Positions 4,244-51,231 of a stretch of DNA of 64,000 nt are shown piece by piece. The position numbers and the translations under genes were made by a program. The notes under the pieces were generated by a model, which saw only the letters and a program-made list of their open reading frames with translations, was not told the origin of the DNA and did not search any database. This DNA comes from Nemertoderma westbladi (lineage: Eukaryota; Animalia; Xenacoelomorpha), in contig JAUCBJ010006459.1 in the NCBI GenBank assembly GCA_032718475.1, positions 1-64,000 of the forward strand, read 5' to 3'. Numbering within the stretch: the first letter of the stretch is position 1; the number at the start of each line of letters is the position of its first letter.

Positions 4244-6973
4244 GTCTTATTATATACGTCAAGTACGGATAATAAAATGTCAAAGTGTCTGAATGTTGAA
4301 GTGTCAAACTTACCTAACCGGTACAAATAAATCAACAAGTCAGAATGTCGAAATGTCAAAATGTCGAAATGTACAAATGTCAAACTTACCTTGATATATA
4401 TATATATCATATATATACCCTAACCGGTACAAATAAACTAACAAGGTATATAATAAAATAAGTAGTAATCTAGCCTACCGGCTAAATTTGTACGAATAAG
4501 TGAGATAACGGTATACGTTAACAAAATGTAGATCAACAAGTATAAACAATAGGCCAAAACAGCAACGTCTAACGGGAAAATAAGTACCAACAACACTACT
4601 AATAGACAGTGAAACCCACAAATTTTGAGTACTACTGTGCTTTCTTAAGTTTGAACGACGCGAGTCGTAAAACTTACGTTCCTTTGATCTTCCAGTCGTA
4701 CAAATTCCCAAATACAAACCGGACGTGGGTCTTTCCGTTTTTCGGCGGCGCGGACGAATTTATTGTCTCCCAAACTTTGCGAAAAGCGGTCTAATCCTCG
4801 AAGCGGTCCAGAAATGAGTCCTTGAGTCCTGAAAAGGTCGAAGGTGAGAGTTTTACTTCTACGCTTACGAAAAATCTTCCTAGGTACCGATACAAATTGG
4901 TCTTTAAACCCTATGTACCTTTTCAAGTACCGAAAGTAACACCGCACACACACGGCGTAAAACAAAGTGCTACAAACTAACTGTTAGCTAGTCAAAGATT
5001 AAATACGAAAGTACTAGCTACCCTAAAAGCCTACTGAAGCAGGGGACGTTCTAAATTACTAAATTTACTAACCTTAGTTTTTAAATATCTCCTACTTTCA
5101 ATAGCTAACAATCGAAATAATACTATAAACTACGGCGGAAATACTATATACTAATTTATATAAATACTTCCTACTGTAAGGGTCCAGTAGTATACCGCTT
5201 ACCAGATCCTAGTAACGATGTATCTTACTATGAGACTCTAGTAATGTATACGGGCTTGTACAGTATCTGACAACAAATCCCAGTCCAGGATATCTAAACA
5301 AACAGATACAATACACAAACGACTACTGGCGAGGAACAGAGCCTTGTATCTATTCTATGTACGTGAGCGGGTCTAATGCCTACGTACTAGACAGAAGGAT
5401 ACCTGTCCTCTAACCGGTGAGGCAGATGTACAGTTACAGTAACAGACCAAACTCACGGGAAAACAATCCCCGCGCAGCGAATCCTAACTATCACTGACAG
5501 TCCTAAATACAGTAACTTGCCGCGGTGTGATTTATATGGTTTATATACGAGCTAGTGGGTTAACAGACCTAGCGTAACAACACTGACAGTCCTAAATCAG
5601 TCGAAAAGGGGTCGTACCTAAATGTAACAATAACTGATCCCCCTGTACGAAATCAGTCTAAAAGGTCAGGCCTAAATGTAACAATACCGTTGTCCAGACA
5701 AACAACAGTTTAATAACGAAAGTGAAATACTCCTTATTGCCGCAACTAAATCAGATCCTAATTTTACAAATACAGACAATTTCCACCTAAAGTAATGTAT
5801 AGTACGCTATAGCTAGTAGAACTTTAAGGGCAATATGTTTTAGGGCGTGTGTGTGTGGGTGTGTTACAAATAAAACAATTTCGTGTAATTCCTTTTACTA
5901 GGTTTTAGTGATTTTCTGACTAAATGATACCGTGCGCTAGCTACTAAAATAAACTAGTCGCGTTTGTAGAACTTTATACTCACGAATGACGTCAAAGCTC
6001 TCTCCTTCCTATCCACAACCCAATGGGCAACCACAGTGTTAGTAACTACACCCGTGATCGGCACTAATACCAGATTCTGGTTGTAAGATAAGAATAGGGG
6101 TTAATCGCTACCGTACGTTAGCTGATCTGGTATACTAATTTAATTCTAGAACTTTGTTGCTGCGGTAGTTAGCAGCAATACCTATCAGTACGTGGCAAGG
6201 CGCGGTAGGATATTAATAAACCTCCCTAGGCCAAGCAGTGTGCCGGTAGCAGAAATACTCCTTGCCTGATCAAATAGCTAACTCCAGACAGGGGGGGGGG
6301 GGGGGGGGTGTACTAATGTACGTTCTACAAAGCGAACCGGTACCAAACAGTCAGTGCTATGAATCACTAAATTATGGAACATATGCTGTCCGTACCTAAT
6401 ATGTACTCGCGTACTGACGAATGGCAATAGTTCGCACCTGTAGGAAGTACAGGTTTTAACCCAGGGATTCGTAGGACTTGACAAAGGGGGGGGGGGGGGG
6501 GGTTGTCTGGATATAATTATTTGATCCTAAATTTGCGGCGTCCAGTACGGTGTCACGCTTACCCTGATCTATAGGTCTTACGGCGGGCAAGGGCGTCGAA
6601 CAAAGTCTTACCTTCTCACAAAGCGGGCGCTGCATAGCAAGTGGAGTATTTCGAAGGGGCAAAGGGGGTGCGCGGTCGATCCAATGTGGGCGCTAGCGTG
6701 TTGTGGACATCCCTTCCCTGCGTTGCTTACGGCCTAACGATCTAGGCTGCCATCTCCCTGACGTTCGGCTGTCCCGAAGTAGGACCAAAGGAAAACATGT
6801 CAGGAATTTGCAGTATATTTACAGTTTTACAAAAGGATTTATCAAACGAAGTTTCAACAAGAAACCGAATAAACTAATTTTACAAAAGTAAGAGTTTTAC
6901 AAAGTGGTAAGAAGTGACATAATATAAGGTGTGTGTGACGTGATAACAGGTAATAACGGAAGGCAAACCGGCC

Positions 6974-7220
6974 TTTTATACTAGAAATTGCACATGGAAA
7001 CTAAACAGAATTTTCCACAGCTTCACCATTGAGCAATGAAGTGCTTCGTGCCCTATGATTGGCCCAGCTCATCGTTCAACGCAGTCCGGCCCTTACACTA
7101 ATCTGGGACATGGAATCCTAACAGAATTTTCCACTGCCTCACATTTGAGCAATAAGATAATTTATGCCCTATGATTGGCCTGGCTCATCATTCGCTACGC
7201 TGTACGCTTCTCATTGGCCT
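6974..7220 (-). promoter_or_regulatory. Pol II promoter in LTR C: duplicated ~115-bp unit with CCAAT and GAAnnTTC motifs, TATAAAA at 6980-6974
   Basis: A direct repeat at about 6991-7075 and 7107-7190 carries GAATTTTC and ATTGG in each copy. A third ATTGG is near 7213. TATAAAA reads on the minus strand. Confidence 0.6.
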
Positions 7221-7253
7221 ACCAATTAGCACCACACGAAAATAAATGGCCCC

Positions 7254-7343
7254 AAAATACAAATTTCCCGACTGGGATTCGAACTCGTAACCTATGTAAT
7301 GCACTATGTACTTTAACGCCTTAACCATCTGACCACTACGCCA
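7254..7343 (-). ncRNA. tRNA-like Pol III cassette (A box, B box, T-run) in U3 of LTR C
   Basis: The minus strand reads TGGTCAGATGGTTAAGGC ... GAGTTCGAATCC ... TTTT. The acceptor stem does not pair. Confidence 0.6.
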
Positions 7344-7599
7344 CGAGAGTACCTAAGGGTTTTATGTGTACAAATATGAATAGGCATATTACATTACTGT
7401 AGCTCAATCAAAATACGTCGGATTTTCGAAAGTTTTTACGTTAAAGTTAAACTACAAATGCTATCTTATAGTGAAATAATTCATCACCACGGGGTTAATG
7501 TTGACCCCCCACCCCCCCCCCAAACAATTGCTCATAAGAGTAGCTCTACTACTAGTATCGGCATGCTGCATTGCAGCTGCATTTTTAAGAATGCTGTGC

Positions 7600-11765: not shown

Positions 11766-12297
11766 TGTTAGCTTATTCAATCCCGCTAACACCCCATAAA
11801 GTTGTAAGCCGATAAGCAATATTGGGAGCCACGAGATTGGGCAATTAACCAACTCGTGCCATCCCAATAAGAGTGGGAAGGAAGCACACAATAAAGGGTC
11901 AGGGGCCAAACCCCTAACCCAGAGAGTACAGGTGGAGTGAACGGGAACACTCCACGGGGCGCCAACAAGGGTAACAACCAATCAGAGGGGGGCAAGGCAT
12001 CGATTGAGTAGAGCAATAAGGCCACCGTGCAATATAACCAGTAACACAATGTCAGTAATTCAGTTATCTCAGTGCAGTGTAGGTTAGTTAGTTTAGATAG
12101 GGGAGCACGGGACTTTAGTTACCGTATCCCGCCTTCCGTATATTATACTACAGTCATCATATCTATATCTTATACCTATCAATTATTATACACCGAATAT
12201 CAGAACTCATTCACTATTTCCGTTTACTCTTTATACACGGCGGGGACGCGTAAACTAAACACCGGATAAATCGGGATCCCTCCTGGATCCCGTCACA
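11766..12297 (+). repeat. 5' LTR of B (532 bp)
   Basis: Near-identical to 43010-43541 (2 substitutions seen). TATAA lies near 12034 and a TCAGTT Inr near 12060. Confidence 0.97.
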
Positions 12298-18300: not shown

Positions 18301-18616
18301 CCAAATTCCAATCCAGTTCAGAAGAATTTATTAAGGCGATAGAGGACAGGAGACCAGAATCGACCATGGACAATCCCACAACAGCCAAAGGGCAGGACAT
18401 GGCGATTAAGAGAACAGAATCTCAACAGAAGGCATTGGGAATCGTGTGGGATAGAGAGACAGACGAACTGAAGTATCAGCTGAGCCAAGAGGGCGCAGAC
18501 ATCCACACGAAGAGGGGCTTTGTATCGTATATAGCAAGGATATACGATCCCCTAGGCCTAGCATCCCCATTATTAGTCACGGGGAAACAGATACTCAAGA
18601 GAGTATACAAATTGAA
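12366..18616 (+). pseudogene. B gag-PR-RT (5' part) with several frameshifts, stops and deletions; interrupted by A
   Basis: Consecutive ORF pieces give a coiled-coil and Asn-rich gag N-terminus, FKFDGS, CSRCVMSGHRAREC, protease LVDSGA, and RT motifs YYLPLH, DIEGMFNQV and FYVDD. Confidence 0.92.
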
Positions 18617-18742
18617 TATAGAATTATATTCCCTAAATGCCGTGGATTTTCAAAATTTGATTTTATTCGGATTAACTTTGTAAAGATTGCTTTGAGTTCT
18701 CATTCGTATTGGTTCTATCATTTGTACATCTATCGGTCAAGT

Positions 18743-18829
18743 GGTTCAGTAGCTCAGTCGGTAGAGCGTTGGAAATTATATGTGTAGTAGGTGTTGAGTT
18801 CGAATCCTAGTAAGTGCGAATTATTTTTT
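18743..18829 (+). ncRNA. tRNA-like Pol III cassette in U3 of the A 5' LTR
   Basis: TAGCTCAGTCGGTAGAGC (A box and D arm), GAGTTCGAATCC (B box, 18796-18807) and T6 at 18824-29. There is no acceptor stem or normal anticodon arm. Confidence 0.7.
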
Positions 18830-18879
18830 GTACAGAATTTCAACTCATTTAAATTAACCGCTACAAATTAATTGCATTT

Positions 18880-19060
18880 ATCTGTACCAATGAGACTGTA
18901 GTTATTTGATTGTAACCAATGTCGTGCAAGTTATATATTAGCTGGACCAATAGCTATCTTTAAAACCCCGTTAGAACCCATAGAACAATCGAGAATTTTC
19001 TCGATTGATTGCGGCACAAATTTGCTATATAAAGGTGCGATTTGTTCATTAGTTATTCAC
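18880..19060 (+). promoter_or_regulatory. Pol II promoter of LTR A: three CCAAT boxes, HSE-like palindrome, TATATAAA at 19026-33
   Basis: CCAAT at about 18887, 18916 and 18947; CAATCGAGAA-TT-TTCTCGATTG at 18986-19007; TATA box followed by TTAGTT about 20 nt downstream. Confidence 0.65.
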
Positions 19061-21340
19061 TTCTACTTCACAGATTATCTTATCAATATTCTGTTGTGCT
19101 TAGTTTATTTCAGATTACATTGTACATATTATTATAATCTTCTGTAATAAAGTCAGAATATTCTCTCAGCTTTTCTATCTGTTTTACTATGGATTCACTA
19201 CGGTGAACTAACTCAGGGACAGGATGGCCGGCTAGAGATCGGGCCGCAGCAATGAACGGGAACATCACGGGAATGTAGACGAGAGACAACCCGCAATACC
19301 ATTTAGAGTTATTCGCCCATCGCCTGAAAGGTTAGACAGCGTTCGATCCTTGCTACCTAAGTGTAAGACCAAAAGATCAAAAGGTAGACGTAGTGACACG
19401 CTGTAAGCCCAAAATTACATCATAGGGACTGTACTGTCTTGATTCAGGAAAACCCACAGTAGACCTTCACATTCCTACGGGGGGGGGGAGAGAGAGCGCA
19501 GGCAGATACTAGTACGCAGATAGGACGTAGGCACACCGGTACAAGGCATACACATTGGTTAGGGTGCAGCAAACTGTACGCTTAACTCTTGCTAAGTACA
19601 GGTGCGTGTGCGACTATTTGCAGTACGACAGTGTCCATTACATCAGAACTTGTAGGCTAGGGGGTTGCTGTGTTTTTACCTGAATTGGGATTGTACCGTT
19701 CGGGCGGTAGGGCAGTTTACGTACTAGGCGCAAATAAATTGAGGCTATCAGGGATATACTAACATCTACCGTGTCCCCGCCAACGCCCTAATAGGAAGTT
19801 ACCCGGACTACCTGGGTGACTAAAATTCTAGATAGGAGCCAGGATAGCTATTAGTACCTGTACGCCTACAGTAGTAAACTAACACATCTCTTCTTAGTAT
19901 CAGGGACCTGGTACCTAAAATTGCCGAATTCTGGGCGTAGTATTAACCTTATGCCTGAATTTGAGTCCTGGAAATACGCAAGAGGGGAAGGAACCTTATC
20001 ATTCGTGAGTATTGGACCTACAAGTTACAAAATTAGAATATTCGTAAATGCACACCGTACCCAGTAATTATATATGTGAAGGAGCAAAACTGTTTTGACC
20101 GTTCAGAATTAACACGCGCGTTAGAAATTATTTACACCTCGAAATATATAAAATTAACTTTTGTCCGTACTGTGCTTTGCCCGCTAGTTAGACATCTCCA
20201 AATCTCTGCCTGTACCTAGCTAGCGTCTCTTTGCCCAACCATATAAATCACACCGCGGCAAGGTATACGAGCCTCTTAGTCCGTCAGTGAGTCAGCCTGA
20301 TTTTAGGATTCGCTGCGCGGGATTTTGTTTTATCGAAGTTTGTCTGCTCGTAGACTGTTTTCTGCCTCACCGGTTATAAGAGATCGATACTGCAATATAT
20401 TCGCTTACTTAGTTTATTGTTTTGGTGAGAAGGTCGGATTTATGATTTGATTTACAAACTTTACAGTAGGATATTGCAGGTATTGTTACCGTCTCTTCGC
20501 ATAGTAGGAATAGGCGTATCTCTTCAATTAGTAGGAATATGTTTTACTGAACTACGGTTCGGTAGGACTAAAGTTATTTGAAAATTCTGTATTTTGAGGT
20601 AAAAATTTGTATTTGATTAGCTAAGTGCTAATTTTTTGAAATAAAATTTGATTTGAACCGCGTGTAAAATATTTTTGGAATTGAATACCGGTGTTTTAAA
20701 AGGGTTTAAATACCATATTGTACCGGTACAAAATTTTCGTAAAAGTAAAACCTAACTCTTTTGTTTTTTCAGGATTCAGAACTCATTTCTAGACTGTAAC
20801 GGGAGCAAGACCGTGTTTAGCAAGTTTGGGAGATAGATAACTCAACAACTTTGGTTGGGAAAATCGCGTTTCGTCCGCAACGTTAAAAACGGAAAGGTTC
20901 ACGTCCGGTTTGTATCTGGGAATCTGTTTTTCTGGAGAATTATTGGAGTGGGTGAGTTCGAAAAGTTGCATAAATAAGTTAGGCATTACCGTATTAGTTA
21001 AAAATTATTGTGGGTTCCACTGTCTCAAGTATTTATGCATTCCGTATGATTTCTTTGTTCATTGCTGAATTAGTCCGTATTATTGTATTTAATTTACCTT
21101 TTGATAACGCATATCGTTATCCGAATTATTTGTTATAAAATTGGCCGCTAGGCTAATTTTATTATATACTTATTCCGTGACATTTATTTGCTGTAAAATT
21201 GGCCGTTTAGGCTAATTTTATCCATCTGCTATAAAATCGGCCGGTAGGCTAATTTTATAAGACTGTAATTAGTACCGTTTAGATAAATACGGTAAACTCG
21301 ATACTTTGACACTCACTTTACTTGACTTACAACTACCGAA

Positions 21341-24300
21341 ATGAGTGACAAACAAGACTATACGAAAAATACACAAACCGACTATGACTCATGTGACGCG
21401 GATAAGTCAGCAGCGGAAGAACAACAGGGGAAGACTCGCGAGCCTACCGAACCTACACCGTGTGCATCACCAGTACATCCAACGGGAGTACCGGATGCCG
21501 TAGTACGAGGCGACGGCAGGACCGAGGACTTTCTAACTGTTCCGCAACCTAGATACAGGGAAACGGAAATGGTAAGTTCAGCAGGAAGCACAGAAAGTGT
21601 GGTTAGAAGCGTCGGTGGATACATGGCGCATATAACCAGGAGTATTGGAGAAGGCCAACGCTTATTAGACGGGTTGACCGCTCCGATGTCTCGATTCGAG
21701 TTCTACACCCTCCAGGTTAGAGTGCAGAGTAAAGTATATAAGTCCGTAGATAATCTAGTTGGCCTACAAGATCTAGCTAGACAGAGACAGGACATGGATA
21801 CTCAACTTAGAATCCTCGAGAAACTAATGATCACTAGAGAGAAACTGATTCAGTTTAAGTCGACGATTAGACAGATACAACAGGAACAAGCGGACCAGTT
21901 GTTAGGTGAGTCAGTTTCGGACGAATTATTACAACCCGAGGAAGAACAGGAACTGTACCGACTGGATGGACAATTGAAACATCTGACGGACCACTTACGC
22001 ATGTGCGGCGAGGACGTCGGAGATTGGGAAACCGTGCCGGAGGCTACGAGGGAAACTTCACTCGCACAAATCAAACCGGTACCGGGAACACTAGATCAAT
22101 CACTGGTGAGTATTCGCAGCGAAATTGGCGAGGTGAGTATGGCTACGTCAGAAATTGCTCGACAACAGCAGATCTACAGACAACAACAGGAGTGGGAGGA
22201 ACAAACTCAACTCATAATGGCACAAGCAGCAGCAGAAGAAGAGAAACTACGCGTTGCGAATGTTGCGAGAATCTCTCACCTGCAAGAACAAGCTGAGTTG
22301 GAAGTAGCCAAAATGGAAAGGTTAGAGTTGGACATTGCACAACAAGCGGCAGCGGCCGAGTTAGCGCAACGAACGGCAGCGGCCGAGTTAGAGCGACAAG
22401 CGGCAGCGGCAGCGGCAGCGTCCGAGTTGGAGCGACAAATGTTAGCTTCAGAAGCGAGAACCGAAATGAAAAAACGGCAAATAAAGGCTCAATCAGCGAT
22501 ACGACAAGCGGAGTTCGAGGCGCAACAACAACAAACGGAACAACGCGAGAAAGAAGTTAAACTTCGTTTCGAACTCGAGAAGAAGGCGAGAGAATTAGCC
22601 AACGCCAAGGAAGACCTGGATCTACAAGCCCGCGATCGATCGATGAGATCTCGAGACGGACATGATTTAGACCGGTTGGAGGTAAGGCACCGCCAAATCC
22701 AGGAACGAATGAAGGAAGGTTCGATAGGAGCACCCGGACGGGAACGACAATTAGTAAAAGACTTGTGTCAACGATTCCCACAAGTAAATCCTATGTTTGC
22801 ACCAGTTACGACTAAGGAACCTGTTTCGATTGCGGGTAGTAGTAACATTTCTCCTATCTATGGTGCGACGGAACACAGGTTTGTTATTCCGGACGAGTTT
22901 ACACCGCCAAGAGCAACGTCGTCGCCTATTCCGAAGGTCAAGGTAAGTAACCCGCCGATTACAGATCGTAGTAGTTTATTAGTCGGACCTGCACTACTGA
23001 CGACTAAACAGGTGAGTCCACCTCTGACGCCACAACCTGTTACACACTACGCTTACCCAATGACGTTTCGACCTACAAGGCCAGTTGATTCAAATGCTGT
23101 CATTCGCCCACCGGTTCAGTTTACATCGCAATCTACGACTTCAAGGAAGACTTGTGAGCCTACCGAACAACGGAGAACAGTGGATATGCGACCGTTCAAC
23201 CAGTTTGCATCGCAATCTACGACTTCGAGGAAGACTTGTGAGCCTACCGAACAACGGAGAACAGTGGATACGCGACCGTTCAACCAGTTTGCATCGCAAT
23301 CTACGACTTCGAGGAAGACTTGTGAGCCTACCGAACAACGGAGATCAGTGGACGATGTTCCAAAGCAAAACGTTAGAATTCGTACGACGCAACGGACGCG
23401 AGCACGTCGACCACCGTATCCAGGTGACAGTAGTACTTCGAGCGAGTCGGATTACCCGGAATGCGAGGTATTTAGAACAGGAGCGGCCGACAAATGTAAA
23501 CGTGAGCGTTCGGATAATTCATTTATCGACAATCCTCCACAGAATACACCAACACAAAAGGCGTTACAACCAACAGACGCGATCAGTACACAACAGTTCG
23601 CCGACATCCTGCGACCAGTTGTTAACAAGTTGGCTCAGATCGAGGAACGTCTAGAGGAAGGTTATACCGACAGTTCGAGAAATTCCGAATTCGAACACAA
23701 TAGACACCCGAAGGAACCACAAAGACCGGTACCTTCAAACCCCACATCGTATCAGGGAAAAGCGCCAAGAAGGGATATCAACAAGGTTACCAACCAAGGA
23801 CGCGAAACTCTGAACGTTGCAGAGGAGATAGCGAAATTCGCAGCCAGACAGGGATTGCCGGTACAACAACCACCGAAGTTTTCCGGTAGCTCAAAACACT
23901 GGCATACTTTCGTAGACTATATCGAATCCCAGATCGCTGTGTGCGCCTTTACATCACGGGAGAAGTTCAATTACCTGCTCCAAACGTTGTCAGGAGAACC
24001 TAAACGTTTGGCGGAGACTTTCGTCGGTGTACCGGACGCTTTCGAACTAGCGTACGATCGTTTAACTTCGATATACGGAGGTACAGTTAGTATGGCCAGG
24101 TCAGTAATAGAGGAACTCTGTAAGGGAGGGGCTATCACTAAACCCGTCGACTTACTAAAACTAGCTGACGAGATCAAGAACGCTATCACTACCTTAAGAT
24201 CAATTGGACAACTTGATTACGGGAATACCCCTACAGTCCTATTAAAGATAATAGGACGACTCCACCATCGACTTCGTCGGGAGTGGAGGAAGGTCGAATA

Positions 24301-27300
24301 CCAGCGAGAAGAGCGGGGAGGATTCTTAAAATTAGAAGATGTGTACCTTTTAATATCCAAGGAGGCAGTAGTAGAAACTAGATCTAACTACACCGACCAG
24401 CACATCGTGGCAGAAGGAATCACACTGCCATCCTCCAACCGACAAAAACCCCAGACAACATCCACTAAGACGGCCACTTACACCACACCGACGGAATCAC
24501 GACAATTCTCGGACGGAGGTAGGGTATCTGCGCCCATTGGGACAAAACAAACGAGACAGCAACTTGGTACCGACTTCAGTGGCTGCCAATACTGCGAGCA
24601 TCTAGGTAAGCGGTATATCGGTCACAAGTTACGAGGTTGTCGACAATTTCGCGAGTTGAACTCGGAAGAACGACGGCTGCAAATACGGCCACTGGACTCT
24701 TGTTGGCAGTGTACGCGACACGGACACGTCCGTAAAGATTGCCCAAATACCGACACTTGTCCATCCTGTGGACGCAACCACGACGGTCTGCTCCACACAG
24801 ACAGCCACACGCCGACAAAACGCTTCGCCAGGGAACACCCGGAAGCAGCAGCGAGATGTGATGCGGCCTATAGAAAACGAGAATCGAAAACGACTCCAAC
24901 CTTCGTGACCCATATTGAGGATTGCTTCTCAGAACAATCCGGATCGTCGGACGAAGAATCAGAAGACGACGAATATTCCAATGGAGACGAACAACCGTCG
25001 ATCGCGCTTCTGACCACTGACCAACTGAAGGGATTCAGTGTAATCCCGATTAAGATCACTGGCACAAAGGGGAGTAAGAGGATCTACGCGATTCTAGATT
25101 CAGCCTCATCTCATAGCTACGTGGATGAAAAGATAGCTGACGTAGTGACGGATCTTAAACAAGGTAAGCATGTCAGTTATACAGTAAGTAGTATGCACGG
25201 ACAGCGTGCAATACCAGTAACACGAGTTAAGTTGGACTTAGACACTCTTCTTCCGAAATCGCAACACAGCGAGAGGGAGAGGTCTTTGTTGCCCTTTAAA
25301 GATCTAACCTTTGCGGCCACGAAGGACTTTAGTAACCTACTAGGTCCAGTGCCGGAACAATCTCTAGAGGACCGTAAGTATTTCAGACACCTTGGTGTAC
25401 CTGAATGTCCTGTCAATTATAGATCGGTAGCAATGCTGATCGGGACAGACCAATTCAACCTACATCAGGTGTGGGAAACCAGACCATCGGCAGTTGTAGC
25501 GGGAAACGCATACGCCTGCAGAACGCCGATAGGGTGGTATACTCGAGCGCCTGTGCGCACACTAGACGTAAGTGACGAGGAAGACGATGTACAGAGTACA
25601 TGTAGTTTATTAACTACAAATTCAATTCATTCCTTCTCACACGACGTGAACCATACTACACTACAGTCGACAAAACATAACAGACGTGTAACTAGTATGA
25701 TAAGTCACAAGGAGCAGCTAATTCACCAGGTGAGTTTAGAACTTGGGGAGAAGACGAGTCAGCTAGAGATTCCATCGACGACAGATGATAGGCTTGCGAG
25801 TCTACCTACCCCAATAACCTCAACAGTGCCCGTCGAGATCGATGATGACGCGTTGAGAAATCATCAGTTGGAACAAGCTGTACTAGACAAGGAATTAACG
25901 GAGAAGACTATCAGGTGGTTAGAACAAGATACAGCTGAACCTGGTAGCTACGAACCTTGTATGTCGGAACAGGAGAAACAATCTCTGAAGATCATGGAAG
26001 ATACTATCCACCAGACGAAAGACGGACATTATGAGGTAGGGATGTTATGGTGTAGCCAAAGTCCTAAACTCATAAACAACTATCCACTGGCTTTAAGACG
26101 TCTACACTCAATACGGCAACGTCTATTAAAGGACGAGAAGGCCCATCTGCAGTACAACACTCAGATGGAGACGTATTTGACTAAGGGATACGCTATCCGA
26201 ATGACTAACCCAGAGATAGAGACTGACCAGACATACTACCTGCCACATCACTATGTGAGACATCCCGACAAACCAGATAAAGTACGCGTAGTCAACGACT
26301 GTGCGGCTCTGTTTGAGGGAATGTCCCTCAATAGTGAGTTGATGGATGGACCAAACATGAATAATTATCTTATGGGGGTGATTATGCGCTTCCGTCAGCG
26401 TCAAGTAGCTTTTACTTGTGACGTTGAAGCGATGTTTCACCAAGTGAGAGCGTTAGAGCGAGACAGAGACAGTTTGCGGTTCCTCTGGTACCCGGAAGGA
26501 GACTTAAGTCTACCACCGGCGACTTACCAAATGCAAGTTCGCGTTTTCGGTGCCAGAGACAGCCCAAATTGCACGATGTACGCCCTAAAGCAGGCCGCTA
26601 GGGATCAGAAACACCTGTATGACCCAGAGATAATTAGGATTGTGGAGCGTGACTTTTATGTAGATGACGGTTTACAGAGTTGCGACACAGTAGAACGTGC
26701 TACAACAGTAGCACATCAATTACGGGACTGCTTAGCGGGCGGAGGTTTTAACCTCACCAAATTCGCCTCAAACAGTGCCGAATTAGTAGACTCATTCGGG
26801 ACGACTGAGCGTGGAGGTGGTGACATAGACCTAGAGTTCGAACCACTACCGACGACTAAGGTGTTGGGGCTCTTTTGGGACCCAAACACAGACAACTTTC
26901 GAGTGAAAGTGAGACTGGACAGTCAAGAGAACACACTGACAAAGAGATCATGCTTGTCAAAGTTGAGCCGATTGTTCGATCCGTTAGGATTCATCAGTCC
27001 AGTGATACTGCAAGCCCGCATTTATATGCGCAGTATATGGAAGGATGGAATAACATGGGATGAGCCGATCTCATCAGACCAAGTGGACTTATGGAAGACC
27101 TGGGAGGCGGAATTATCTTCGCTAGAGGATTATTCCATACCCAGGGTTTACTTTCCATTACAAAGTACATTTCCTGACAACTTGGAACTACACTGTTTTT
27201 CTGACGCCAGCGACAACGGTTTTGGTGTGGCAGCGTACTTGCGCAGACAAGTAGAATCAGACGAGTTCGATGTTTCGCTCATTACTTCTAAGGCTAAGAC

Positions 27301-30033
27301 CATGCCTACTAAGTATATGACGACACCACGAGCCGAGCTACAAGCCGCAACCCTGTCAACCACCATCGTGAACCTCATACAGACAGAACTACAGTCGAGT
27401 TTACAGATATTTTATTGGACTGACGCGACGTTGGTTTTATTTTACATAAACAACGACACACTCGAATTCAAGACATTCGTTGCTAACCGTCGCGCGGAAA
27501 TTCTAGACCGTTCAATAAAAGGGGATTGGCGACATTGTCCCGGACCACAAAACCCAGCTGATATTGCGTCGCGAGGAATGATGCCTGAGGAATTCTGTAA
27601 ACCGGAGAACAAAGAATTTTGGCAACACGGACCCCAGTTCTTGCAGAAATCGACACAAGATTGGCCTCCGTTATACGACAACAAATCTAACACTATCCCA
27701 AAGGACGCCGAAATCAAGAAACCAAAAAAGGGGAAGACAAAGAAAAGGACGACGGCGGCAAAACTCAAGAAAAAACCGAAGGCGAAATGGAAAGATATAA
27801 CTTCAAAGGTCAAGAGAGGAAGACTTGCGAGCCTTTCTACACCAGACATATCGCCAGACGGTCAACCAGACGCGTTACTAGACGGTCAACCAGACATTCT
27901 ACCAGACACTAGTGACATACTGACAAACAGTAAAGCCGCAGTTTCCCTATTGGAGCGGCCTTCTATTGACAAACAACCAGATACGTTACCAGACGTATCG
28001 CCAGACACATTACTAGACAGTCGACTAGACATTTTGTCAGAAACATCACAAAATGTTCTACCGGACATTAGTAATTTATCGACTAACAGTAAAGCCGCAG
28101 TTTCCCTATTGGAGCGGCCTTGTATTGACAAACTACCAATTTTGACACACTTGAGCAACCATAAGCACGGTGAAACCTCATGTATTACAGATGTGGGTAG
28201 TACCTACGCTAATGTAAATACAGGTGTTACTTTGCGCTCAAGAGACATACCGAACTTGCAACCTATGGTGAAACCTGGGATTAATATCGGCAGAAAAATT
28301 AGTTTACCGAAACCCACTGATCCCATAGAGTTCAAACCACCATTAACGATCGACTTACAAAGTACCGACAATCAAGGTAAGAAGACAAAGAAGGACAAAT
28401 TACTTGTAGACCCGGACGGATCAACAGTCAACAAGGGAATACCTACCGGCGGACCCGTGGGCCCTTCTAGTAATTCAAAACCTTCCAAAATCTCAATTGA
28501 CTTACCTGATGACGTCACAAATACTCATGTCGACCGTATTGTAAACCTAACAGATTCTTGGACAAACGCTTGCCGAAAATTAGCGTGGATTGTACGTTTT
28601 GTACAATACGTTAAAGGCAAACGTGACTTTACACGTCGACTTACATTGACTGAGATTGACAGGTGTGAAATTAAATTAATTCGCCATTACCAACTGCGAT
28701 ATTTCGCGCGCGAATTCACATCTATAAATCAAGGTCAACCAATCAAGTCGTCACCAATACTGAGTTGGAGTCCGATTATTTATAATGGCTTAATTTGTCA
28801 TAAATCTCGGCTTCAAAACATTGACTTTAACACAAACTTTAGGTACCCAATAATAATACCGCAACACCACGAACTACAACGTGCAATGATACTGGACGCA
28901 CATCTACATCTGAAACACGCTGGAAGACACCACTGTCTTTCCTACTTACGTACTAGATTTGTATTAATTTGACCCAGTAAAGCATTAAGTTCAGTGACAC
29001 GTACGTGTATTATTTGTAAAAAGGTACATTCTAGAATAGGTACCCAAGAAATGAGTGAACTACCACAAGCACGACTTCAAGCATTCAAACCACCTTTTAC
29101 AGAGACGGGAATTGATTGCTTTGGTCCCATACATACGAAACGTGGACGTATACTAGTAAAACGCTGGGGACTGATTTTCACATGTATGTCCAGTAGGGCA
29201 GTTCACATTGAACGTGTGATGGATCTTTCCACCAACGCGTTTATACTAGCACTGCGGCGATTTATTGCTAGACGCGGACTAGTAAAATGCTTGTACTCAG
29301 ACCAAGGGACAAACTTCGTTGGTGCTCGGAATGAGATTGCTAGAGCCTTTAAGAAATTAGATCATGATCAAATCTCGAACGAACTGCAACCTCACAAGAT
29401 TGTTTGGAAGTTCAATCCTCCAGATAGTCCTTGGAGAGGCGGAGTCTGGGAGAGATTAATTAGATCTATAAAGACAGCCATGGCAAAGGTCATTCCAGTA
29501 AACCACATATTAACAGACGACCAACTGACAACATTGTTGAAATCGAGGCAATACTAAATACTAGACCAATAGTATTAGTACCCGATGACAAACAATCTCA
29601 ATTTGCTTTAACACCAGCACACCTGCTAATGCAGGCACCGACTACTTTGACGCCGATTTCTATTCCAATAGAAAGCGACAGCTACGGTAGAAAAGCGTGG
29701 AAAATCACGCAACTACTAGCTAACAAATTCTGGGAAATATGGCAAAACCATTATTTGCCCTCTATTTCTGCCAGAACAACTTGGTACAATAACACCCGCG
29801 CATTAAAGCCGGGAGATCACGTGCTGTTGGCAGAAGTGAATCTAAAAAGACGCTTCTGGATAACAGGTGTAATTTTAGCCACACATCCATCTATGGATGG
29901 AGTGACAAGAACTGTGACGGTACGGACAATTGACGGTCGTACAGTAGACAGACCGACTCAACGTCTCGTACTTCTTGAAGAGACTCGTAACGAGTCTGGA
30001 GACTACAAATCTCCACCTAATACTAGTAAATAA
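21341..30033 (+). pseudogene. A gag-pol polyprotein (Gag, PR, RT, RNase H, IN); nonsense at 28970 and 4-bp deletion near 29535, both in the integrase region
   Basis: A 2543-aa ORF plus two downstream pieces. Motifs: ILDSAS, FYVDDG, FSDAS...RAEL...WTD...NPAD, H..HAG..CIIC, DCFGP, SDQGTNF, GGVWERLI and a GPY/F-like tail. The lesions are defined by comparison with A'. Confidence 0.95.
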
Positions 30034-30700
30034 TTAGGAGTTTACAAATAGATTTCCACGTACCTGTACACTGTAGTAAGGACAGCGGTGGGATTCCATT
30101 GTCTTTATATGTGAACATTGAGGGTAGTACCCTTATGTGTCACATAGGAGCGGGATTTGTAGGTATAAGAAATGTAATTCTACTTGGAACTCACAATATT
30201 GAGACATTTTTGAAATTTTAGACAATCCATTTGGATTTGAAAATTTTTAAAAATTTTCTCCAGTGAATAGATTTCAGGGTACAGTCGGGTGGAACTTAAA
30301 ATTAGAGAAACAAGAGAGGAAGACTTGCGAGCCTTTCTTAAAAAAAAAATTTTTTAATTAAATTTTACACGGTCTTGTTTCAATAAGTTACGTCGAAATA
30401 GACTCCCCTATATTTATTACTAATTCTTGATTGCTTATTTTCTGATAATAGTTTGGGATCAAAAGGTGAGTATTTTAGACTCACAGCCAGTTTAGCCCAA
30501 ATTCGTTTTTATTTCGGCAAAAAATTTTAGATAAGAAGCAGCGTGTCATTAAAGAAACCTTAGATCTTAGGCTATGGGTAGGAGGTTAGAGCGTTGTCGA
30601 AGCCCAAAGGGCAGACGAAACTCTCACGTCTCCTCACAACTAACTACAAACTCTGTTGTATTCCCTCTAGTAGTAATGATTATGTAACTACACCCTAATT

Positions 30701-33700
30701 ATGGAGAAAGGGATACAAGGAGAGCCGAGATGGGGATATGATATCCAAGAGGAGGCAGCAGCGCCATTCGAAAGATTTGGAGCCAAGGATTATACTATAT
30801 TTGGTATAAAAGAATTATCGGAAAGTACAGCGAAACTCGTGAGAACTAAATATGACTCGAACGTATTAAAGAGAAGGCAAAACGCATTAAACGAAAGAAT
30901 CGAAAGTTTGCGCCAAACCTTCAACGAACTTTACCCGTACGATGCTTTGTGTGATACGGGAGACATTAGCGAAGACCCCGATACTGAAATTAGTCGTTTG
31001 TATCATACCATGCAATACCTAAAGGCGCATGAACCTATGCCCGCGGTACGCGATGAATTCGATGGAATGCATCTTTACAGACGAACTCGAGGGGACGATA
31101 GAGAAACCAAGGAAGCATTTTCAGTTTATAAACTTTATTATCAATGCGGTTCTTGTATGCGCGAACAACGAAATGCGATTCCGATGCGTTTGAATAAGGA
31201 AAATCCCGAACCGATATTGGCGAGGTGTTCGAATCATCAACAACTACGCTACCAGGAAGGAGGGTATCCTTTATCGAATCCATATCATTCATTTGCTATG
31301 ACCGGACCAAAGGCGGGAGAAACTGTCATTTACCCACCTAAGGTTGTTGAACCCGATGTATTTGAACTTACGCTGGACGAGGCGAATCAGTCAACCCGCG
31401 AAAAGAAAGAAGCTCTTAGCCTATACAGAGCCTACAAGGCTTTCGAGAAAGGTGAGATGGAAGAATGGGGTGGAAGACTCGCGAGCCTACCTTGCCATTG
31501 GACGTCACACGATCAAACTTCAGCTAAGGAGATGACACCGGAAGTTTTCGAGAGCATAAACTTTGCTCAAAACGTTATTCAGAGACTACAGATTGCATCC
31601 CCGGAGAGGCCAAGAGAAATGCAACCGTATAGTACTTCAACTACGAAACCATTGAGTACGACACTCAATTTCCCTATTAGTATACCAGTCCGACAGGATA
31701 CGACGTACGAAATACCCATCGTGGATCATCCAGAAATCATTTCAAACTTGGAGTTTCTTCCTGCAGTTGTTTTCAGCGATATGAGTAAGATATATGATTT
31801 ACGTAGACATATTACTCAAAAGGTCGTGCACAACGTTCCACCTCATATTCAAGATTTCAAGGAACTGGATAGAGCTGGTGCCGACATAGCTCCAAGTAAT
31901 CTGAAAGGATATCTAACCAAGACGATTCGTTTATGGATTGGAACCGGAACCTTCGAGTCGGATACAGATATTGCCGCAGATTGGCGAGGTAAGGTTATTC
32001 GTTTCGATGAGGATAAGGATATAGAGAAGATTTGGCAACCTTCGGAAGAATTGTTGGATGAATGGACTAGGACGTTTAGATCGTTTCAGGAAAACGGTTA
32101 TATGTTTTACGATAACGAGGGCGGCAGTCATCAGCAGAGTTTGACTTCTAAGACTATACAAATTAGAGCGGCGGACGGAGTCCTGCACGTTTTCAGTAGA
32201 CAGAGGAGCGACAAACGAATGCCGATACCTCCAGCGAATACAAAGCGACACCATCTTATCACCGATATAGTAAAGAAGATGGACCAAGCCTGTAATATTG
32301 ACGCTAGAATGCTACCGAAGATGGTAAGAAACATGATTTTAGATAAAACTGTTGTAAAGGTTGGATCAGGAGTAAGGGAGGATTTAATTAGCGACTTCGC
32401 CGGCATGACGGACAGCGATGACCGACTACCGACACCATACGTCGACACTCGACCTCTTATTCTGTGGTCTATAGAACAGGGATATTTTCGTGAGTATAAT
32501 ACTCAGAAGACTGGAACTGGATACATTTCCTACCTGTTATTCAATTGGGATTATAAGGAAAATAAGAGAAACAAGTATATTGAAACTTATGGAGAAGGTG
32601 ATACTCCAGATATGAGTGAGTTTGAATCACAGCTTAAATGGAGAGGATGCATGTATTGGGCTATTACGTCACCTCCAAGAGCGGTCTTACAATATTATTT
32701 AGCGATAGAGTCGTCAGTGAATGTTTGCCTAATCGCCGACATTGTGTCTCGGACTCTCAAAAGACATCCACTTTGTCTCGGAGAAGATCATACGTTCTAC
32801 ATGGAAGGGAGAATTCGTACCGACGTGTTTAGACGATTCCTTGAACCCTTCTACAACTCCGACGCTCAGTGTAATGCCTTTACTCGAGCAGGATTTAGCA
32901 TATTTCGAGACGTGTATCTTCGCTGTGCGGGATCTCTTATCGAAAGACCATCTATGTTTACACTGTTACCCAATGAAGGAGAACGTATCGTGGAAATTAC
33001 GGATGAATCACGGCAGACGCGCGCGCCTATCGGTCACCTTGGTGATGAATTCGAAGTAACTACTACGATCGCCGACGATCCTTTAGAGGAACTTCTTGAG
33101 ATAGAAAGGAACCTCCCGAAGAAATCTCAGACGGAGATTCGACAACTTGAAGCAACAGATGCTATAGTTTGTATACAACCTTCAGAAACCTACCAACCCA
33201 TAGACCCAGATGATTACGATTATAGTGTGGGAGGAAGCGCTCGACCGATTGGAGATCTTATATATGAACGAGTGTGGTACCCTGCGAATACGATGTGTAG
33301 TAAATGTGGCGTCGCTGGACATCATATGGCAAAGTGCAGTGGAAAGCACATTACTACGACTCAGCTAATCTGTGGATGGTGTGGGGATCAAGGGTCTCAT
33401 ACCTTTTATACTTGCTGGAGATTTATGGCCCAATGTACTTATTGCAATATAAAGGGACATCGAGCATCTGAATGCCAACTAAGGGACATACCTTATGAAC
33501 ACGAATCTGTAAAACTCGTGAGGAAGTTATTTGATGAGTGGGAAGATTTAGCCGACGAACATGTATCAGCACAAAGAAGACGGTTTCCGTTGAGAGCGCA
33601 TCTCGGATTTTGGGCGGTAAATCCCCAGACGATGATGTCGGAAGGATATATCTCCGCTATGCCCCAATATGACGAACTTATCGAGGTTGTCGATATTTTG

Positions 33701-34426: not shown

Positions 34427-34499
34427 AAGGGAGGGCAAGGGTGGACGTAAGACTCGTGAGCATTTCTTATGATTTGTGATTTATTTTGAATTATATGTT

Positions 34500-35060
34500 T
34501 TATATTTAGAAAATTTAGTAAAACTTATATTTTATATTTGTGCTTATTCCGAACTTATGCAATTTGTATTGTTCCGAATTTATGAAATTTAGAAATAAGA
34601 ACTTATATTTTGTAAAACTTATATTTAGTAAAACTTATATTTTATATTTGTGATTATTCCGAACTTATGCAATTTATATTATTCCGAACTTATGCAATTT
34701 ATATTGTTCCGAATATTATGCAATTTATATTTTATGAGCAGTATTACAGTGAAACAGAAAGTAAGGGTAGATGGAAGACTCGTGGGCCTTTCTTATAGTT
34801 TCATTTGTAAAGTGTTATTTTGTATTTAGAAAGTTTTATAGTCAGAAATTTGTGCTTAGAAAGACTCATATTTGTAATTATTCCAAACTTATGCAATCTA
34901 CATTTAGGCACGAAAGTATTTGTAATTACTTGAATTTATGCAATATTTGAGATGCAATAGTAGATGGAAGACTCGCGAGCCTTTCTTATTGTTTTCATTT
35001 ATTTGTATTTGTAATTGTTTGAATTTATGCAATATTGAGATGCAATAGATTTATATTGGT
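34500..35060 (+). repeat. AT-rich degenerate repeats (TTCCGAACTTATGCAATTTATA) in the 3' UTR of A
   Basis: About 8 visible variants of GAAyTTATGCAAT; also present in A'. Confidence 0.8.
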
Positions 35061-35280
35061 GAATTTAATTTAGATTTATATTGTACTTACTTAGTAAAGC
35101 CTTAAATACGTAAAGTTTGAATTTGTAATTATTTTGTATCGAATCATTACGTAGAAAGGAAGTATTGTTTGAAATTTAATTGTAAATATGTAAGTACGCC
35201 CTAAGTATTCTATAGTTTAATTGATTATTGGTGAAAACCGTATATTTTATGCACGATAATATCCTGTTTTCATGGAGCGG

Positions 35281-37204
35281 TATAGAATTATATTCCCTAA
35301 ATGCCGTGGATTTTCAAAATTTTATTTTATTCGGATTAACTTTGTAAAGATTGCTTTGAGTTCTCATTCGTATTGGTTCTATCATTTGTACATCTATCGG
35401 TCAAGTGGTTCAGTAGCTCAGTCGGTAGAGCGTTGGAAATTATATGTGTAGTAGGTGTTGAGTTCGAATCCTAGTAAGTGCGAATTATTTTTTGTACAGA
35501 ATTTCAACTCATTTAAATTAACCGCTACAAATTAATTGCATTTATCTGTACCAATGAGACTGTAGTTATTTGATTGTAACCAATGTCGTGCAAGTTATAT
35601 ATTAGCTGGACCAATAGCTATCTTTAAAACCCCGTTAGAACCCATAGAACAATCGAGAATTTTCTCGATTGATTGCGGCACAAATTTGCTATATAAAGGT
35701 GCGATTTGTTCATTAGTTATTCACTTCTACTTCACAGATTATCTTATCAATATTCTGTTGTGCTTAGTTTATTTCAGATTACATTGTACATATTATTATA
35801 ATCTTCTGTAATAAAGTCAGAATATTCTCTCAGCTTTTCTATCTGTTTTACTATGGATTCACTACGGTGAACAAACTCAGGGACAGGATGGCCGGCTAGA
35901 GATCGGGCCGCAGCAATGAACGGGAACATCACGGGAATGTAGACGAGAGACAACCCGCAATACCATTTAGAGTTATTCGCCCATCGCCTGAAAGGTTAGA
36001 CAGCGTTCGATCCTTGCTACCTAAGTGTAAGACCAAAAGATCAAAAGGTAGACGTAGTGACACGCTGTAAGCCCAAAATTACATCATAGGGACTGTACTG
36101 TCTTGATTCAGGAAAACCCACAGTAGACCTTCACATTCCTACGGGGGGGGGGGGGGGGGGGGAGAGAGAGCGCAGGCAGATACTAGTACGCAGATAGGAC
36201 GTAGGCACACCGGTACAAGGCATACACATTGGTTAGGGTGCAGCAAACTGTACGCTTAACTCTTGCTAAGTACAGGTGCGTGTGCGACTATTTGCAGTAC
36301 GACAGTGTCCATTACATCAGAACTTGTAGGCTAGGGGGTTGCTGTGTTTTTACCTGAATTGGGATTGTACCGTTCGGGCGGTAGGGCAGTTTACGTACTA
36401 GGCGCAAATAAATTGAGGCTATCAGGGATATACTAACATCTACCGTGTCCCCGCCAACGCCCTAATAGGAAGTTACCCGGACTACCTGGGTGACTAAAAT
36501 TCTAGATAGGAGCCAGGATAGCTATTAGTACCTGTACGCCTACAGTAGTAAACTAACACATCTCTTCTTAGTATCAGGGACCTGGTACCTAAAATTGCCG
36601 AATTCTGGGCGTAGTATTAACCTTATGCCTGAATTTGAGTCCTGGAAATACGCAAGAGGGGAAGGAACCTTATCATTCGTGAGTATTGGACCTACAAGTT
36701 ACAAAATTAGAATATTCGTAAATGCACACCGTACCCAGTAATTATATATGTGAAGGAGCAAAACTGTTTTGACCGTTCAGAATTAACACGCGCGTTAGAA
36801 ATTATTTACACCTCGAAATATATAAAATTAACTTTTGTCCGTACTGTGCTTTGCCCGCTAGTTAGACATCTCCAAATCTCTGCCTGTACCTAGCTAGCGT
36901 CTCTTTGCCCAACCATATAAATCACACCGCGGCAAGGTATACGAGCCTCTTAGTCCGTCAGTGAGTCAGCCTGATTTTAGGATTCGCTGCGCGGGATTTT
37001 GTTTTATCGAAGTTTGTCTGCTCGTAGACTGTTTTCTGCCTCACCGGTTATAAGAGATCGATACTGCAATATATTCGCTTACTTAGTTTATTGTTTTGGT
37101 GAGAAGGTCGGATTTATGATTTCATTTACAAACTTTACAGTAGGATATTGCAGGTATTGTTACCGTCTCTTCGCATAGTAGGAATAGGCGTATCTCTTCA
37201 ATTA
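35281..37204 (+). repeat. 3' LTR of A (1924 bp), preceded by short PPT GGAGCGG; tRNA-like cassette at 35407-35493
   Basis: Direct repeat of 18617-20530. Confidence 0.95.
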
Positions 37205-43009: not shown

Positions 43010-43541
43010 TGTTAGCTTATTCAATCCCGCTAACACCCCATAAAGTTATAAGCCGATAAGCAATATTGGGAGCCACGAGATTGGGCAATTAACCAACTCG
43101 TGCCATCCCAATAAGAGTGGGAAGGAAGCACACAATAAAGGGTCAGGGGCCAAACCCCTAACCCAGAGAGTACAGGTGGAGTGAACGGGAACACTCCACG
43201 GGGCGCCAACAAGGGTATCAACCAATCAGAGGGGGGCAAGGCATCGATTGAGTAGAGCAATAAGGCCACCGTGCAATATAACCAGTAACACAATGTCAGT
43301 AATTCAGTTATCTCAGTGCAGTGTAGGTTAGTTAGTTTAGATAGGGGAGCACGGGACTTTAGTTACCGTATCCCGCCTTCCGTATATTATACTACAGTCA
43401 TCATATCTATATCTTATACCTATCAATTATTATACACCGAATATCAGAACTCATTCACTATTTCCGTTTACTCTTTATACACGGCGGGGACGCGTAAACT
43501 AAACACCGGATAAATCGGGATCCCTCCTGGATCCCGTCACA
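43010..43541 (+). repeat. 3' LTR of B (532 bp) preceded by PPT GGGGGGGAG
   Basis: Direct repeat of 11766-12297, followed by TSD TTAAA. Confidence 0.97.
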
Positions 43542-49331: not shown

Positions 49332-51231
49332 TATTGGAAGAGACAGTAACAATACCTGCAATATCCTACTGTAAAGTTTGTGAATCAAATCATAAATCCG
49401 ACCTTCTCACCAAAACAGTAAACTCTAAGTAAGCGAATATATTGCAGTATCGATCTCTTATAACCGGTGAGGCAGAAAACAGTCTACGAGCAGACAAACT
49501 TCGATAAAACAAAATCCCGCGCAGCGAATCCTAAAATCAGGCTGACTCACTGACGGACTAAGGGGCTCGTATACCTTGCCGCGGTGTGATTTATATGGTT
49601 GGGCGAAGAGACGCTAGCTAGGTACAGAGGCAGATATTTGGAGATGTCTAACTAGCGGGCAAAGCACAGTACGGACAAAGTTAATTTTATATATTTCGAG
49701 GTGTAAATAATTTCTAACGCGCGTGTGTTAATTCTGAACGGTCAAACAGTTTTGCTCCTTCACATATATAATTACTGGGTACGGTGTGCATTTTACGAAT
49801 ATTCTAATTTTATAACTTGTAGGTCCAATACTCACGAATGATAAGGTTCCTTCCCCTCTTGCGTATTTCCAGGACTCAAATTCAGGCATAAGGTTAATGC
49901 TACGCCCAGAATTCGGCAATTTTAGGTACCAGGTCCCTGATACTAAGAAGAGATGTGTTAGTTTACTACTGTAGGCGTACAGTTACTAATAGCTATCCTG
50001 GCTCCTATCTAGAATTTTAGTCACCCAGGTAGTCCGGGTAACTTCCTATTAGGGCGTTGGCGGGGACACGGTAGATGTTAGTATATCCCTGATAGCCTCA
50101 ATTTATTTGCGCCTAGTATGTAAACTGCCCTACCGCCCGAACGGTACAATCCTAATTCAGGTGAAAACACAATAACCCTCCTAGCCTACAAGTTCTGATG
50201 TAATGGACACCGTTGTACGGCAAATAGTCACAGACGCACCTGTACTTAGCAAGAGTTAAGCGTACAGTTTGCTGCACCCTAACCAATTTGTATGCTTCGT
50301 ACCGGTGTGCCTACGTCCTATCTGCATACTAGTATCTGCCTGCGCTCTCCCTCCCCCGTAGGAATGTGAAGGTCTACTGTAGGTTTTCCTGAATCAAGAC
50401 AGTACAGTCCCTATGATGTAATTTTGGGCTTACAGCGTGTCACTACGTCTACCTTTTGATCTTTTGGTCTTACACTTAGGTAGCAAGGATCGAACGCTGT
50501 CTAACCTTTCAGGCGATGGGCGAATAACTCTAAAATGGTATTGCGGGTTGTCTCTCGTCTACATTCCCGTGATGTTCCCGTTCATTGCTGCGGCCCGATC
50601 TCTAGCCGGCCATCCTGTCCCTGAGTTTGTTCACCGTAGTGAATCCATAGTAAAACAGATAGAAAAGCTGAGAGAATATTCTGACTTTATTACAGAAGAT
50701 ACAATTATAATACAATGCAATCTGAGAATAAACTAAGCACGACAGAATATTGATAAGATAATCTGTGAAGTAGAGATGTAAGTGAAGAAGTGAACTAATG
50801 AACGAAATCGCACCTTTATATACTAAATTTGTGCCGCAATCAATCGAGAAAATTCTCGATTGTTCTATAGATTCTAACAAGGTTTTAAAGATAGCTATTG
50901 GTCCAGCTAATATATAACTTGCACGACATTGGTTACAATCAAATAACTACAGCCTCATTGGTACAGACAAATGCAATTAATTTGTAGCGGTTAATTTAAA
51001 TGAGTTGAAATTCTGCACAAAAAATAATTCGCACTTACTAGGATTCGAACTCGATACCTACTACACATATAATTTCCAACGCTCTACCAACTGAGCTACT
51101 GAACCACTTGACCGATAGATGTACAAATGATAGAACCAATACGAATGAGAACTCAAAGCAATCTTTACAAAGTTAATTCGAATAAAATAAAATTTTGAAA
51201 ATCCACGGCATTTAGGGAATATAATTCTATA
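49332..51231 (-). repeat. 3' LTR of A' (about 1900 bp, TATAG...CAATA); tRNA-like cassette at 51105-51019
   Basis: Reverse-complement match to the A LTRs, ending about 27 nt earlier than they do. Confidence 0.92.

Follow-up and report, generated by a model that had tools for sequence, protein, structure and literature searches.

A candidate self-primer and TA...TA termini in a young BEL/Pao retrotransposon of Nemertoderma westbladi

Introduction

What fixes the right end of a long terminal repeat (LTR) that finishes in TA, and which RNA primes DNA synthesis behind it? This question is raised by a BEL/Pao retrotransposon, here called A, in a contig of Nemertoderma westbladi (JAUCBJ010006459.1), of which the first 64,000 nucleotides were analysed (the window). 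The ICTV describes BEL/Pao elements as tRNA-primed and their replication as poorly understood (PMC8742986). According to excerpts of the relevant papers, self-priming has been described for Tf1/sushi elements and proposed for Copia TAR (PMC6317226, PMC7175516, PMC5341516); Tf1 and Tf2 take an 11-nt primer from their own LTR RNA, which acts on a non-tRNA site behind the LTR (PMC7175516, PMC5341516). Excerpts of further sources describe TA...TA termini as a TATA class in lotus, Arabidopsis and grape Copia elements (PMC9804982) and in annelid elements (PMC8220671), and report that Zam-type gypsy elements also lack TG...CA (PMC3601003). The primer site goes unmentioned in the excerpted parts of PMC554778 and PMC3118150. 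In the openly accessible literature covered by the searches, we found neither TA...TA termini for BEL/Pao nor a BEL/Pao self-primer or spliced primer.

Nested BEL/Pao elements in the window

The window is made up of nested transposable elements in animal-type DNA (Table 1). Element A (18617-37204, +) sits inside the RNase H region of a host element, B (11766-43541). A second copy, A', is 97% identical to A and spans 62889 to 49332 on the minus strand, with its 3' LTR inside a LINE endonuclease ORF. A sister element, C, occupies the start of the window on the minus strand and shows 68% identity across the coding region; its LTR end is a predicted one, and its 3' LTR falls outside the window. 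BEL/Pao domains are present in all three families (A, B and C). The domains PF03564, PF05380 and PF18701 of A, together with the order PR-RT-RH-IN, identify its long frame as a BEL/Pao (Belpaoviridae) gag-pol. The window copy of this gag-pol is broken by a stop codon (28970) and changes frame near 29464-29557. A protein homologue search returned 939 homologues of A at E<=1e-20, and its RT-RH region is 40-45% identical to those of fish, echinoderm, cnidarian, hemichordate and snail elements. In a quick tree of 33 rows, A formed a long unplaced branch (1.22), the tree holding no named reference elements for placement in a sub-lineage (Sinbad, Suzu, Dan). Direct LTRs and a target-site duplication (TSD), as expected of BEL/Pao, flank A. 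Three mismatches in 1914 aligned positions separate its two LTRs (99.8% identity), the 3' LTR exceeding the 5' LTR by 10 nt and having the longer poly-G run. A is thus a young, recently inserted BEL/Pao element.

Several other features of the window were observed. The sequence at 62890-64000, which has a coding remnant and is possibly a DNA transposon, interrupts A'. At 45036-46805 (-) lies a degenerate piece of gag that resembles B (about 71% identity), and a perfect 8-bp hairpin (12272-12292) stands immediately ahead of the B LTR end. A and C share a conserved block of U5 (20237-20376 in A, 5541-5411 (-) in C) that includes 25 identical nt, within LTRs that otherwise do not align.

Table 1. 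Coordinates of the features discussed, in window positions
Feature	Position	Strand
5' LTR of sister element C, ends predicted as TG...CA	5175..7486	-
tRNA-like cassette, C U3	7375-7255	-
5' LTR of host element B, BEL/Pao, TG...CA, 5-bp TSD	11766..12297	+
Left TSD of A, TTGAA (5-bp reading)	18612..18616	+
5' LTR of A, 1914 bp, TA...TA	18617..20530	+
tRNA-like cassette in A U3 (A-box, B-box, T run)	18744..18828; 35408-35492	+
TATA box behind CCAAT boxes	19026..19033	+
AATAAA upstream of primer; its use would contradict the model	19146..19151	+
GT..AG intron removing both primer and primer site	19331..20772	+
Predicted self-primer, 11-nt complement of primer site	19468..19478	+
AATAAA, 255 nt past the primer end, consistent with the model	19733..19738	+
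Motif 1, probable relic junction after CA, pairs 8/11	20466..20476	+
Duplication unit 1: LTR-end-like bases and 9/11 primer-site copy (motif 2)	20492..20518	+
Duplication unit 2: LTR end in use and primer site	20519..20545	+
Putative primer-binding site (motif 3), without TGG; 10/11 in window copy	20531..20541	+
BEL/Pao gag-pol of A (DUF1759, Peptidase_A17, DUF5641)	21326..30033	+
Integrase codons W, R at E-6, E-5	29432..29437; A' 57105-57100	+; A' -
Extra ORF of A, 1241 aa	30701..34426	+
Short purine-rich tract ahead of 3' LTR of A	35272..35280	+
3' LTR of A, 1924 bp, TA...TA	35281..37204	+
Right TSD of A, TTGAA	37205..37209	+
3' LTR of B	43010-43541	+
3' LTR of A', TA...TA, short form without duplication	49332..51231	-
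tRNA-like cassette, A' U3	about 51100-51020	-

TA...TA termini and target-site duplication

The original prediction held that A and A' both begin with TATAG and that their LTRs run from TA to TA. Both statements are borne out, and the termini are common to further copies in contigs of public runs (X1 to X5, of which X1 and X2 are one sample). On the left, three X4 contigs with differing flanks break at 18617, and X5 shows the purine-tract junction there. On the right, three X4 contigs pass into flanking sequence, each at a different point: one behind a 5-mer ending in TA that follows 20498, one past 20503 and one past 20530. One X3 contig has a CA end. The terminal TA is constant among copies, and the bases directly preceding it vary; conserved 7 nt at 20519-20525 directly precede the variable terminal 5 nt of the LTR. 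Since the LTRs differ at only 3 of 1914 positions, the TA...TA ends of A are not a product of decay, which places the element in the non-TGCA class. An origin of TA through RIP-like decay was considered and is ruled out by the 2548-aa open frame and the near-identity of the LTRs.

The TSD of A is most likely 5 bp. A 6-bp reading had been called formally possible, and it is; readable TSDs of BEL/Pao elements disfavour it, being 5 bp in all four cases (B, L005, L010 and L011, three of three among the relatives described below), while L004, L006 and L024 have no readable TSD. The other A' junction, where a TSD matching GAGCC would be expected, is absent from the window, in which A' breaks off at 62889.

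The duplicated right end of the LTR

Three primer-site-like motifs had been placed at 20466, 20504 and 20531, and all three are there. Their density exceeds chance, with three AGTAGGA in 115 nt where 0.007 would be expected. A single 27-bp tandem duplication, whose units agree at 18 of their first 21 nt, accounts for motifs 2 and 3, which are therefore not independent. The duplication spans the U5/primer-site junction, and its first unit now lies within both LTRs of A. The A' end does adjoin GAGCC (49327-31) at 49332; its assignment to the second motif proved not to be specific, A' aligning about equally well to either unit. The corresponding motif of C, confirmed at 5174 on the minus strand, follows CA at what is a predicted LTR end.

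Shorter forms of this junction exist in other copies. Copies lacking the 27-bp unit on the left are found in 5, 3 and 3 contigs of X1, X2 and X3, and a unit-1 end leading through a full primer site into internal sequence is found in 1, 2 and 4. No LTR end occurs at motif 1 among the contig loose ends listed, and its anchored pairing run is 6; it may be an older junction, placed after CA as at the C end. The proposal that GTAGGAA at 20531 is the primer site is supported by its position against the LTR end and by the LTR complement described below. The further claim that the LTR boundary follows whichever GTAGGAA is primed stands in so far as the end abuts whichever intact primer site follows, in short and long forms alike; motif 1 gives no sign of use. 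It is likely, judging from these copies, that the LTR end of A was moved at least once by the 27-bp duplication, with the downstream site now in use.

A candidate self-primer in the LTRs of A, B and C

No TGG occurs in the first 9 bases of the primer sites of A, B or C. Instead, each site has a complement in the LTR of its own element, anchored at the first base after the LTR. In the window copy of A, 10 of 11 positions pair (an anchored 8 nt, a mismatch, then 2). The anchored 8 nt were reached in 94 of 2000 shuffles, barely under the 5% level, and the full 11-mer of other copies in 11 of 5000. Full pairing in other copies of A had been predicted beforehand and was then found: copies differing at 20539 pair 11 of 11 in 15, 14, 11 and 1 contigs of X1, X2, X3 and X4, and make up 27-31% of summed depth across three samples. 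X3 contigs with different internal sequence retain just the 11-nt site. B carries a 9-nt complement of its own primer site (12114-12122; 6 of 2000 shuffles), and C one of 10 nt (6449-6440 (-); 12 of 2000). For all three LTRs, the best match is the element's own primer site. At positions 8-10, where the sites of A and C are unlike, each tracks the LTR of its own element.

A purine run behind the 11-mer (19479-19496) can pair with the conserved 20519-20525 and could extend a priming helix.

Taken together, the termini, the duplication, both of its forms, the complement, the start of the complement and the covariation between families argue, at the level of sequence, that A probably self-primes with 11 nt of its own LTR RNA (19468-78 on 20531), that the right end of its LTR would be set by primer pairing and that the 27-bp duplication likely lengthened the LTR.

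Spliced and contiguous complements in BEL/Pao relatives

Twenty-five BEL/Pao loci were collected from animal-type DNA inside MAG records, and 15 of them have a readable LTR and primer site; 10 were dropped before counting (L003, L009, L014, L015, L016, L017, L021, L023, L025 and L026). Under one uniform rule, 11 of the 15 reach an 11-13 nt complement of their own site; it is contiguous in one, and in the other 10 it is complete only once a GT..AG intron within the LTR is removed. Among controls, none of 72 slid windows passed, and of 306 cross pairs 3 did, one being a same-family pair and two being chance matches in the long LTR of C. Those that miss are L008, L010, L018 and L020, the last of which had 11 nt under an earlier rule and fails the stricter acceptor filter. 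Relatives with two LTRs pass in 6 of 8 cases; for the remaining 7 of the 15, the LTR end was set by eye, not blind, after the matches were known. Between L004 and L006, two compensatory changes link the exon end and the primer site. The first 9 bases lack TGG in 14 of the 15 relatives (17 of 18 elements with A, B and C).

Of the 11 passing relatives, 9 have a poly(A) signal behind the primer end, in 8 of them within 33 nt, an arrangement that would fit the need of strand transfer after an internal cut. The LTR continues behind the primer for 1.05 kb in A and 1.27 kb in C, compared with 44-252 nt in the passing relatives. Among the two-LTR relatives, seven of eight end in CA, L024 is ambiguous and none is TA...TA.

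The records that hold these loci (L002-L026) are prokaryote MAGs, and their animal-type BEL/Pao elements are most likely host contamination. Two scans of viral contigs found no relatives, and L001, a metagenome pattern match, was rejected as having no similarity to the window. L022 has an extra ORF between LTR and gag (4231-4947), hydrolase-like by eye and with no Pfam match above cut-off, and L020 contains a nested LTR element on the opposite strand (1443-6162) with a 5-bp TSD.

Leader RNA and a proposed priming cycle

Transcription of A is predicted, from the TATA box, to start near 19058, which places the primer about 410 nt behind the start. Poly(A) signals of A are listed in Table 1; C has a downstream ATTAAA only. 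The splice joint 19331-20772 is seen in one X4 contig, with a short side of 26 nt. X4 is on record, questionably, as DNA, yet it has this GT..AG joint and an A>G-rich contig; over 19662-20362, that contig has 91 differences, most of them A>G, which resembles RNA hyper-editing of U5. In folding predictions, the priming helix of A forms (p about 0.8) only when folding begins at 19461, not at the predicted start, and it is absent when the whole leaders of B and C are folded. A Tf1-type primer at the predicted start of A was also tried and rejected, the helix being only 6-7 bp.

In the proposed cycle, the 11-mer of unspliced A RNA would pair with the primer site, and the RNA would presumably be cut or trimmed just behind the 11-mer. 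Copying would then proceed from 20530, fixing the right end of the LTR, and strand transfer would use the sequence between the cut and the downstream poly(A) site (AATAAA 19733). Splicing of 19331-20772 may yield an mRNA without primer or primer site.

The U3 cassette and the extra ORF

The U3 regions of A, A' and C share a tRNA-like cassette. Neither ARAGORN nor Rfam called it in A. All four window matches of its 10-nt B-box lie within the LTRs of A, A' and C, and the LTRs of the relatives hold no such cassette except for a B-box-like match in L010. The cassette is possibly a Pol III promoter or insulator.

Behind gag-pol, the extra ORF of A has a DEDDy-exonuclease-like region at about aa 420-720 and three zinc-knuckle-like motifs; in A' it lies in two pieces (55762-52104 (-)). 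It gave no Pfam match and no homologue in a word-index search. A search among representatives returned two weak matches. One protein, P0122, is an architectural relative with which the motif-like residues align, and 24 of 30 Atlas matches carry PF01612 (0.93); the fold model has a pLDDT of 29. No search found env-likeness.

Alternative primers and alternative ends

The primer could be sought outside the LTR. Priming might come from a host RNA, such as half of a tRNA cleaved in its anticodon loop (Arg-CCU type, for example), with the LTR complement serving a structural or regulatory role. The 7 nt common to A and C might be read as such an anticodon loop, half-tRNA priming is known from excerpts of PMC6317226 and PMC10886601, and tRNA-Arg or tRNA-Gly is listed by the ICTV for the family (PMC8742986). 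We regard this source as unlikely, given that positions 8-10 follow the element's own LTR in both A and C, and that the sites vary widely among B and the relatives, with each LTR matching the site of its own element. Far less probable still, and hardly to be entertained, is priming by the tRNA-like U3 RNA of the element itself. The cassette is kept in both A and C, and the 5' 11 nt of its RNA can pair with 20545-55; this pairing, however, involves the 5' end of the RNA and sets in only 14 nt past the LTR end, C has no such pairing, and the X3 copies with other sequence there keep only the 11-nt site.

The ends, too, might be read otherwise. Tandem primer-site copies could at present be primed alternately, so that one template gives LTRs of different lengths. 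LTR ends do exist at both 20503 and 20530 positions, motif 2 keeps 9 of 11 pairs, and motif 1 is preceded by CA as at the C end. Against such active sliding, single-site short-form templates exist and account for the short ends, the listed ends include none at motif 1, and unit 1 is contained in both LTRs of A; we consider it improbable, though somewhat less so than a host primer. As for the TA itself, the ends might be TA...TT with a 6-bp TSD, a reading compatible with the flanks of A and implying the same empty site, or TA might be decay or an assembly error. This is very unlikely: the readable TSDs are 5 bp, the LTRs of A are nearly identical, and A' and three X4 ends likewise terminate in TA, with A at the 20530 position. 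The LTR 11-mer begins its pairing at G20531, not at A20530. Priming from the LTR RNA of A, at a downstream site created by duplication, remains the preferred reading.

The integrase of the TA-ended element

Both 3' ends of A are TA, compared with CA in B, in C (where it is predicted) and in the relatives, and the original proposal that this integrase accepts TA follows from the termini of A. The integrase of A and A' carries W and R six and five residues ahead of the catalytic glutamate (E-6 and E-5). Of 120 homologues, 97 have the motif, and all 97 carry H at E-6, as do 14 of 15 loci and B; none of the 97 has R at E-5. The integrase model of A (pLDDT 81) matches PFV intasome structures at E 4e-9; a phmmer search of the integrase core against PDB sequences gave no match, and profile matches were only weak (E 0.03-1). 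Counting from Glu221, with a weak profile alignment to HIV integrase, W and R correspond to PFV 215-216, beside Pro214. These two residues we take to lie in helix eta2. Excerpts of the structural literature equate PFV P214/Q215 with HIV P145/Q146 (PMC2920056) and describe helix eta2 and its loop as inserted between the two strands where the viral DNA ends, residues 212-214 being in contact with the scissile dinucleotide (PMC3395085). By this correspondence, the W/R loop would map to the DNA-end-splitting loop of foamy-virus integrase. The change may be what lets TA ends be used; the correlation comes from one lineage, and on so long a branch the change may be one of many. The integrase of C, which would make the best control, lies beyond the window.

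Comparison with known systems

The nearest parallel to A is Tf1/sushi. A complement of at least 10 nt in the LTR, to a site 0-5 nt behind it, is the mark of a self-primer according to an excerpt of PMC6317226, and it is reached in other copies of A (11 of 11) and in C (10), with B falling below it at 9 nt. The systems differ in lineage, Tf1/sushi being Ty3/gypsy, whereas the domains and homologues of A are BEL/Pao and its RT is not of the chromovirus lineage. They differ also in layout: the Tf1 primer is the first 11 bases, the one proposed for A lies deep in the LTR, and in most relatives of A the primer is split by an intron. Cleavage in A is putative.

Within Belpaoviridae, A conforms in its gag-PR-RT-RH-IN order, Pao-specific Pfam domains and direct LTRs. 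It departs from the family in size (LTR of 1.9 kb and element of 18.6 kb, against 0.2-1.2 kb and 4.2-10 kb; PMC8742986), in its TA...TA ends and extra ORF, and in lacking the 18-nt tRNA 3'-end primer site that the ICTV gives as a trait; the protein evidence still places it in BEL/Pao. Judging from excerpts on the plant elements with TA...TA ends, these are mostly Copia with short LTRs, unlike A, and in the excerpts on plant and annelid elements we noticed no integrase correlate comparable to the W/R change. Helenus TRIMs also have a tRNA-like sequence inside the LTR, but are non-autonomous and tRNA-primed (PMC10886601, excerpt), and the DEDDy exonuclease ORF3 of bdelloid rotifer retrotransposons belongs to other LTR lineages (PMC5408684, excerpt). 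A joins a tRNA-like LTR cassette and a DEDDy-like ORF in one protein-coding BEL/Pao family.

Implications

A bolder reading, which we hold to be doubtful, is that this BEL/Pao lineage re-tuned both ends of its replication. It would have an intron-free self-primer deep in a 1.9-kb LTR, which a DEDDy exonuclease encoded by the element would trim to its 3' end and which splicing would remove from the mRNA, together with an integrase loop (H to W, x to R) switching CA to TA. Search programs that expect TG...CA ends and a tRNA site would overlook elements like A or trim them wrongly. How integrase reads the near-universal CA could well be studied in a family such as this one, young and abundant, with TA...TA ends and a single conspicuous change in its integrase. 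If the self-primer is real, it would explain how such LTR ends shift, and a self-primer often built by splicing would revise the picture of BEL/Pao elements as tRNA-primed.
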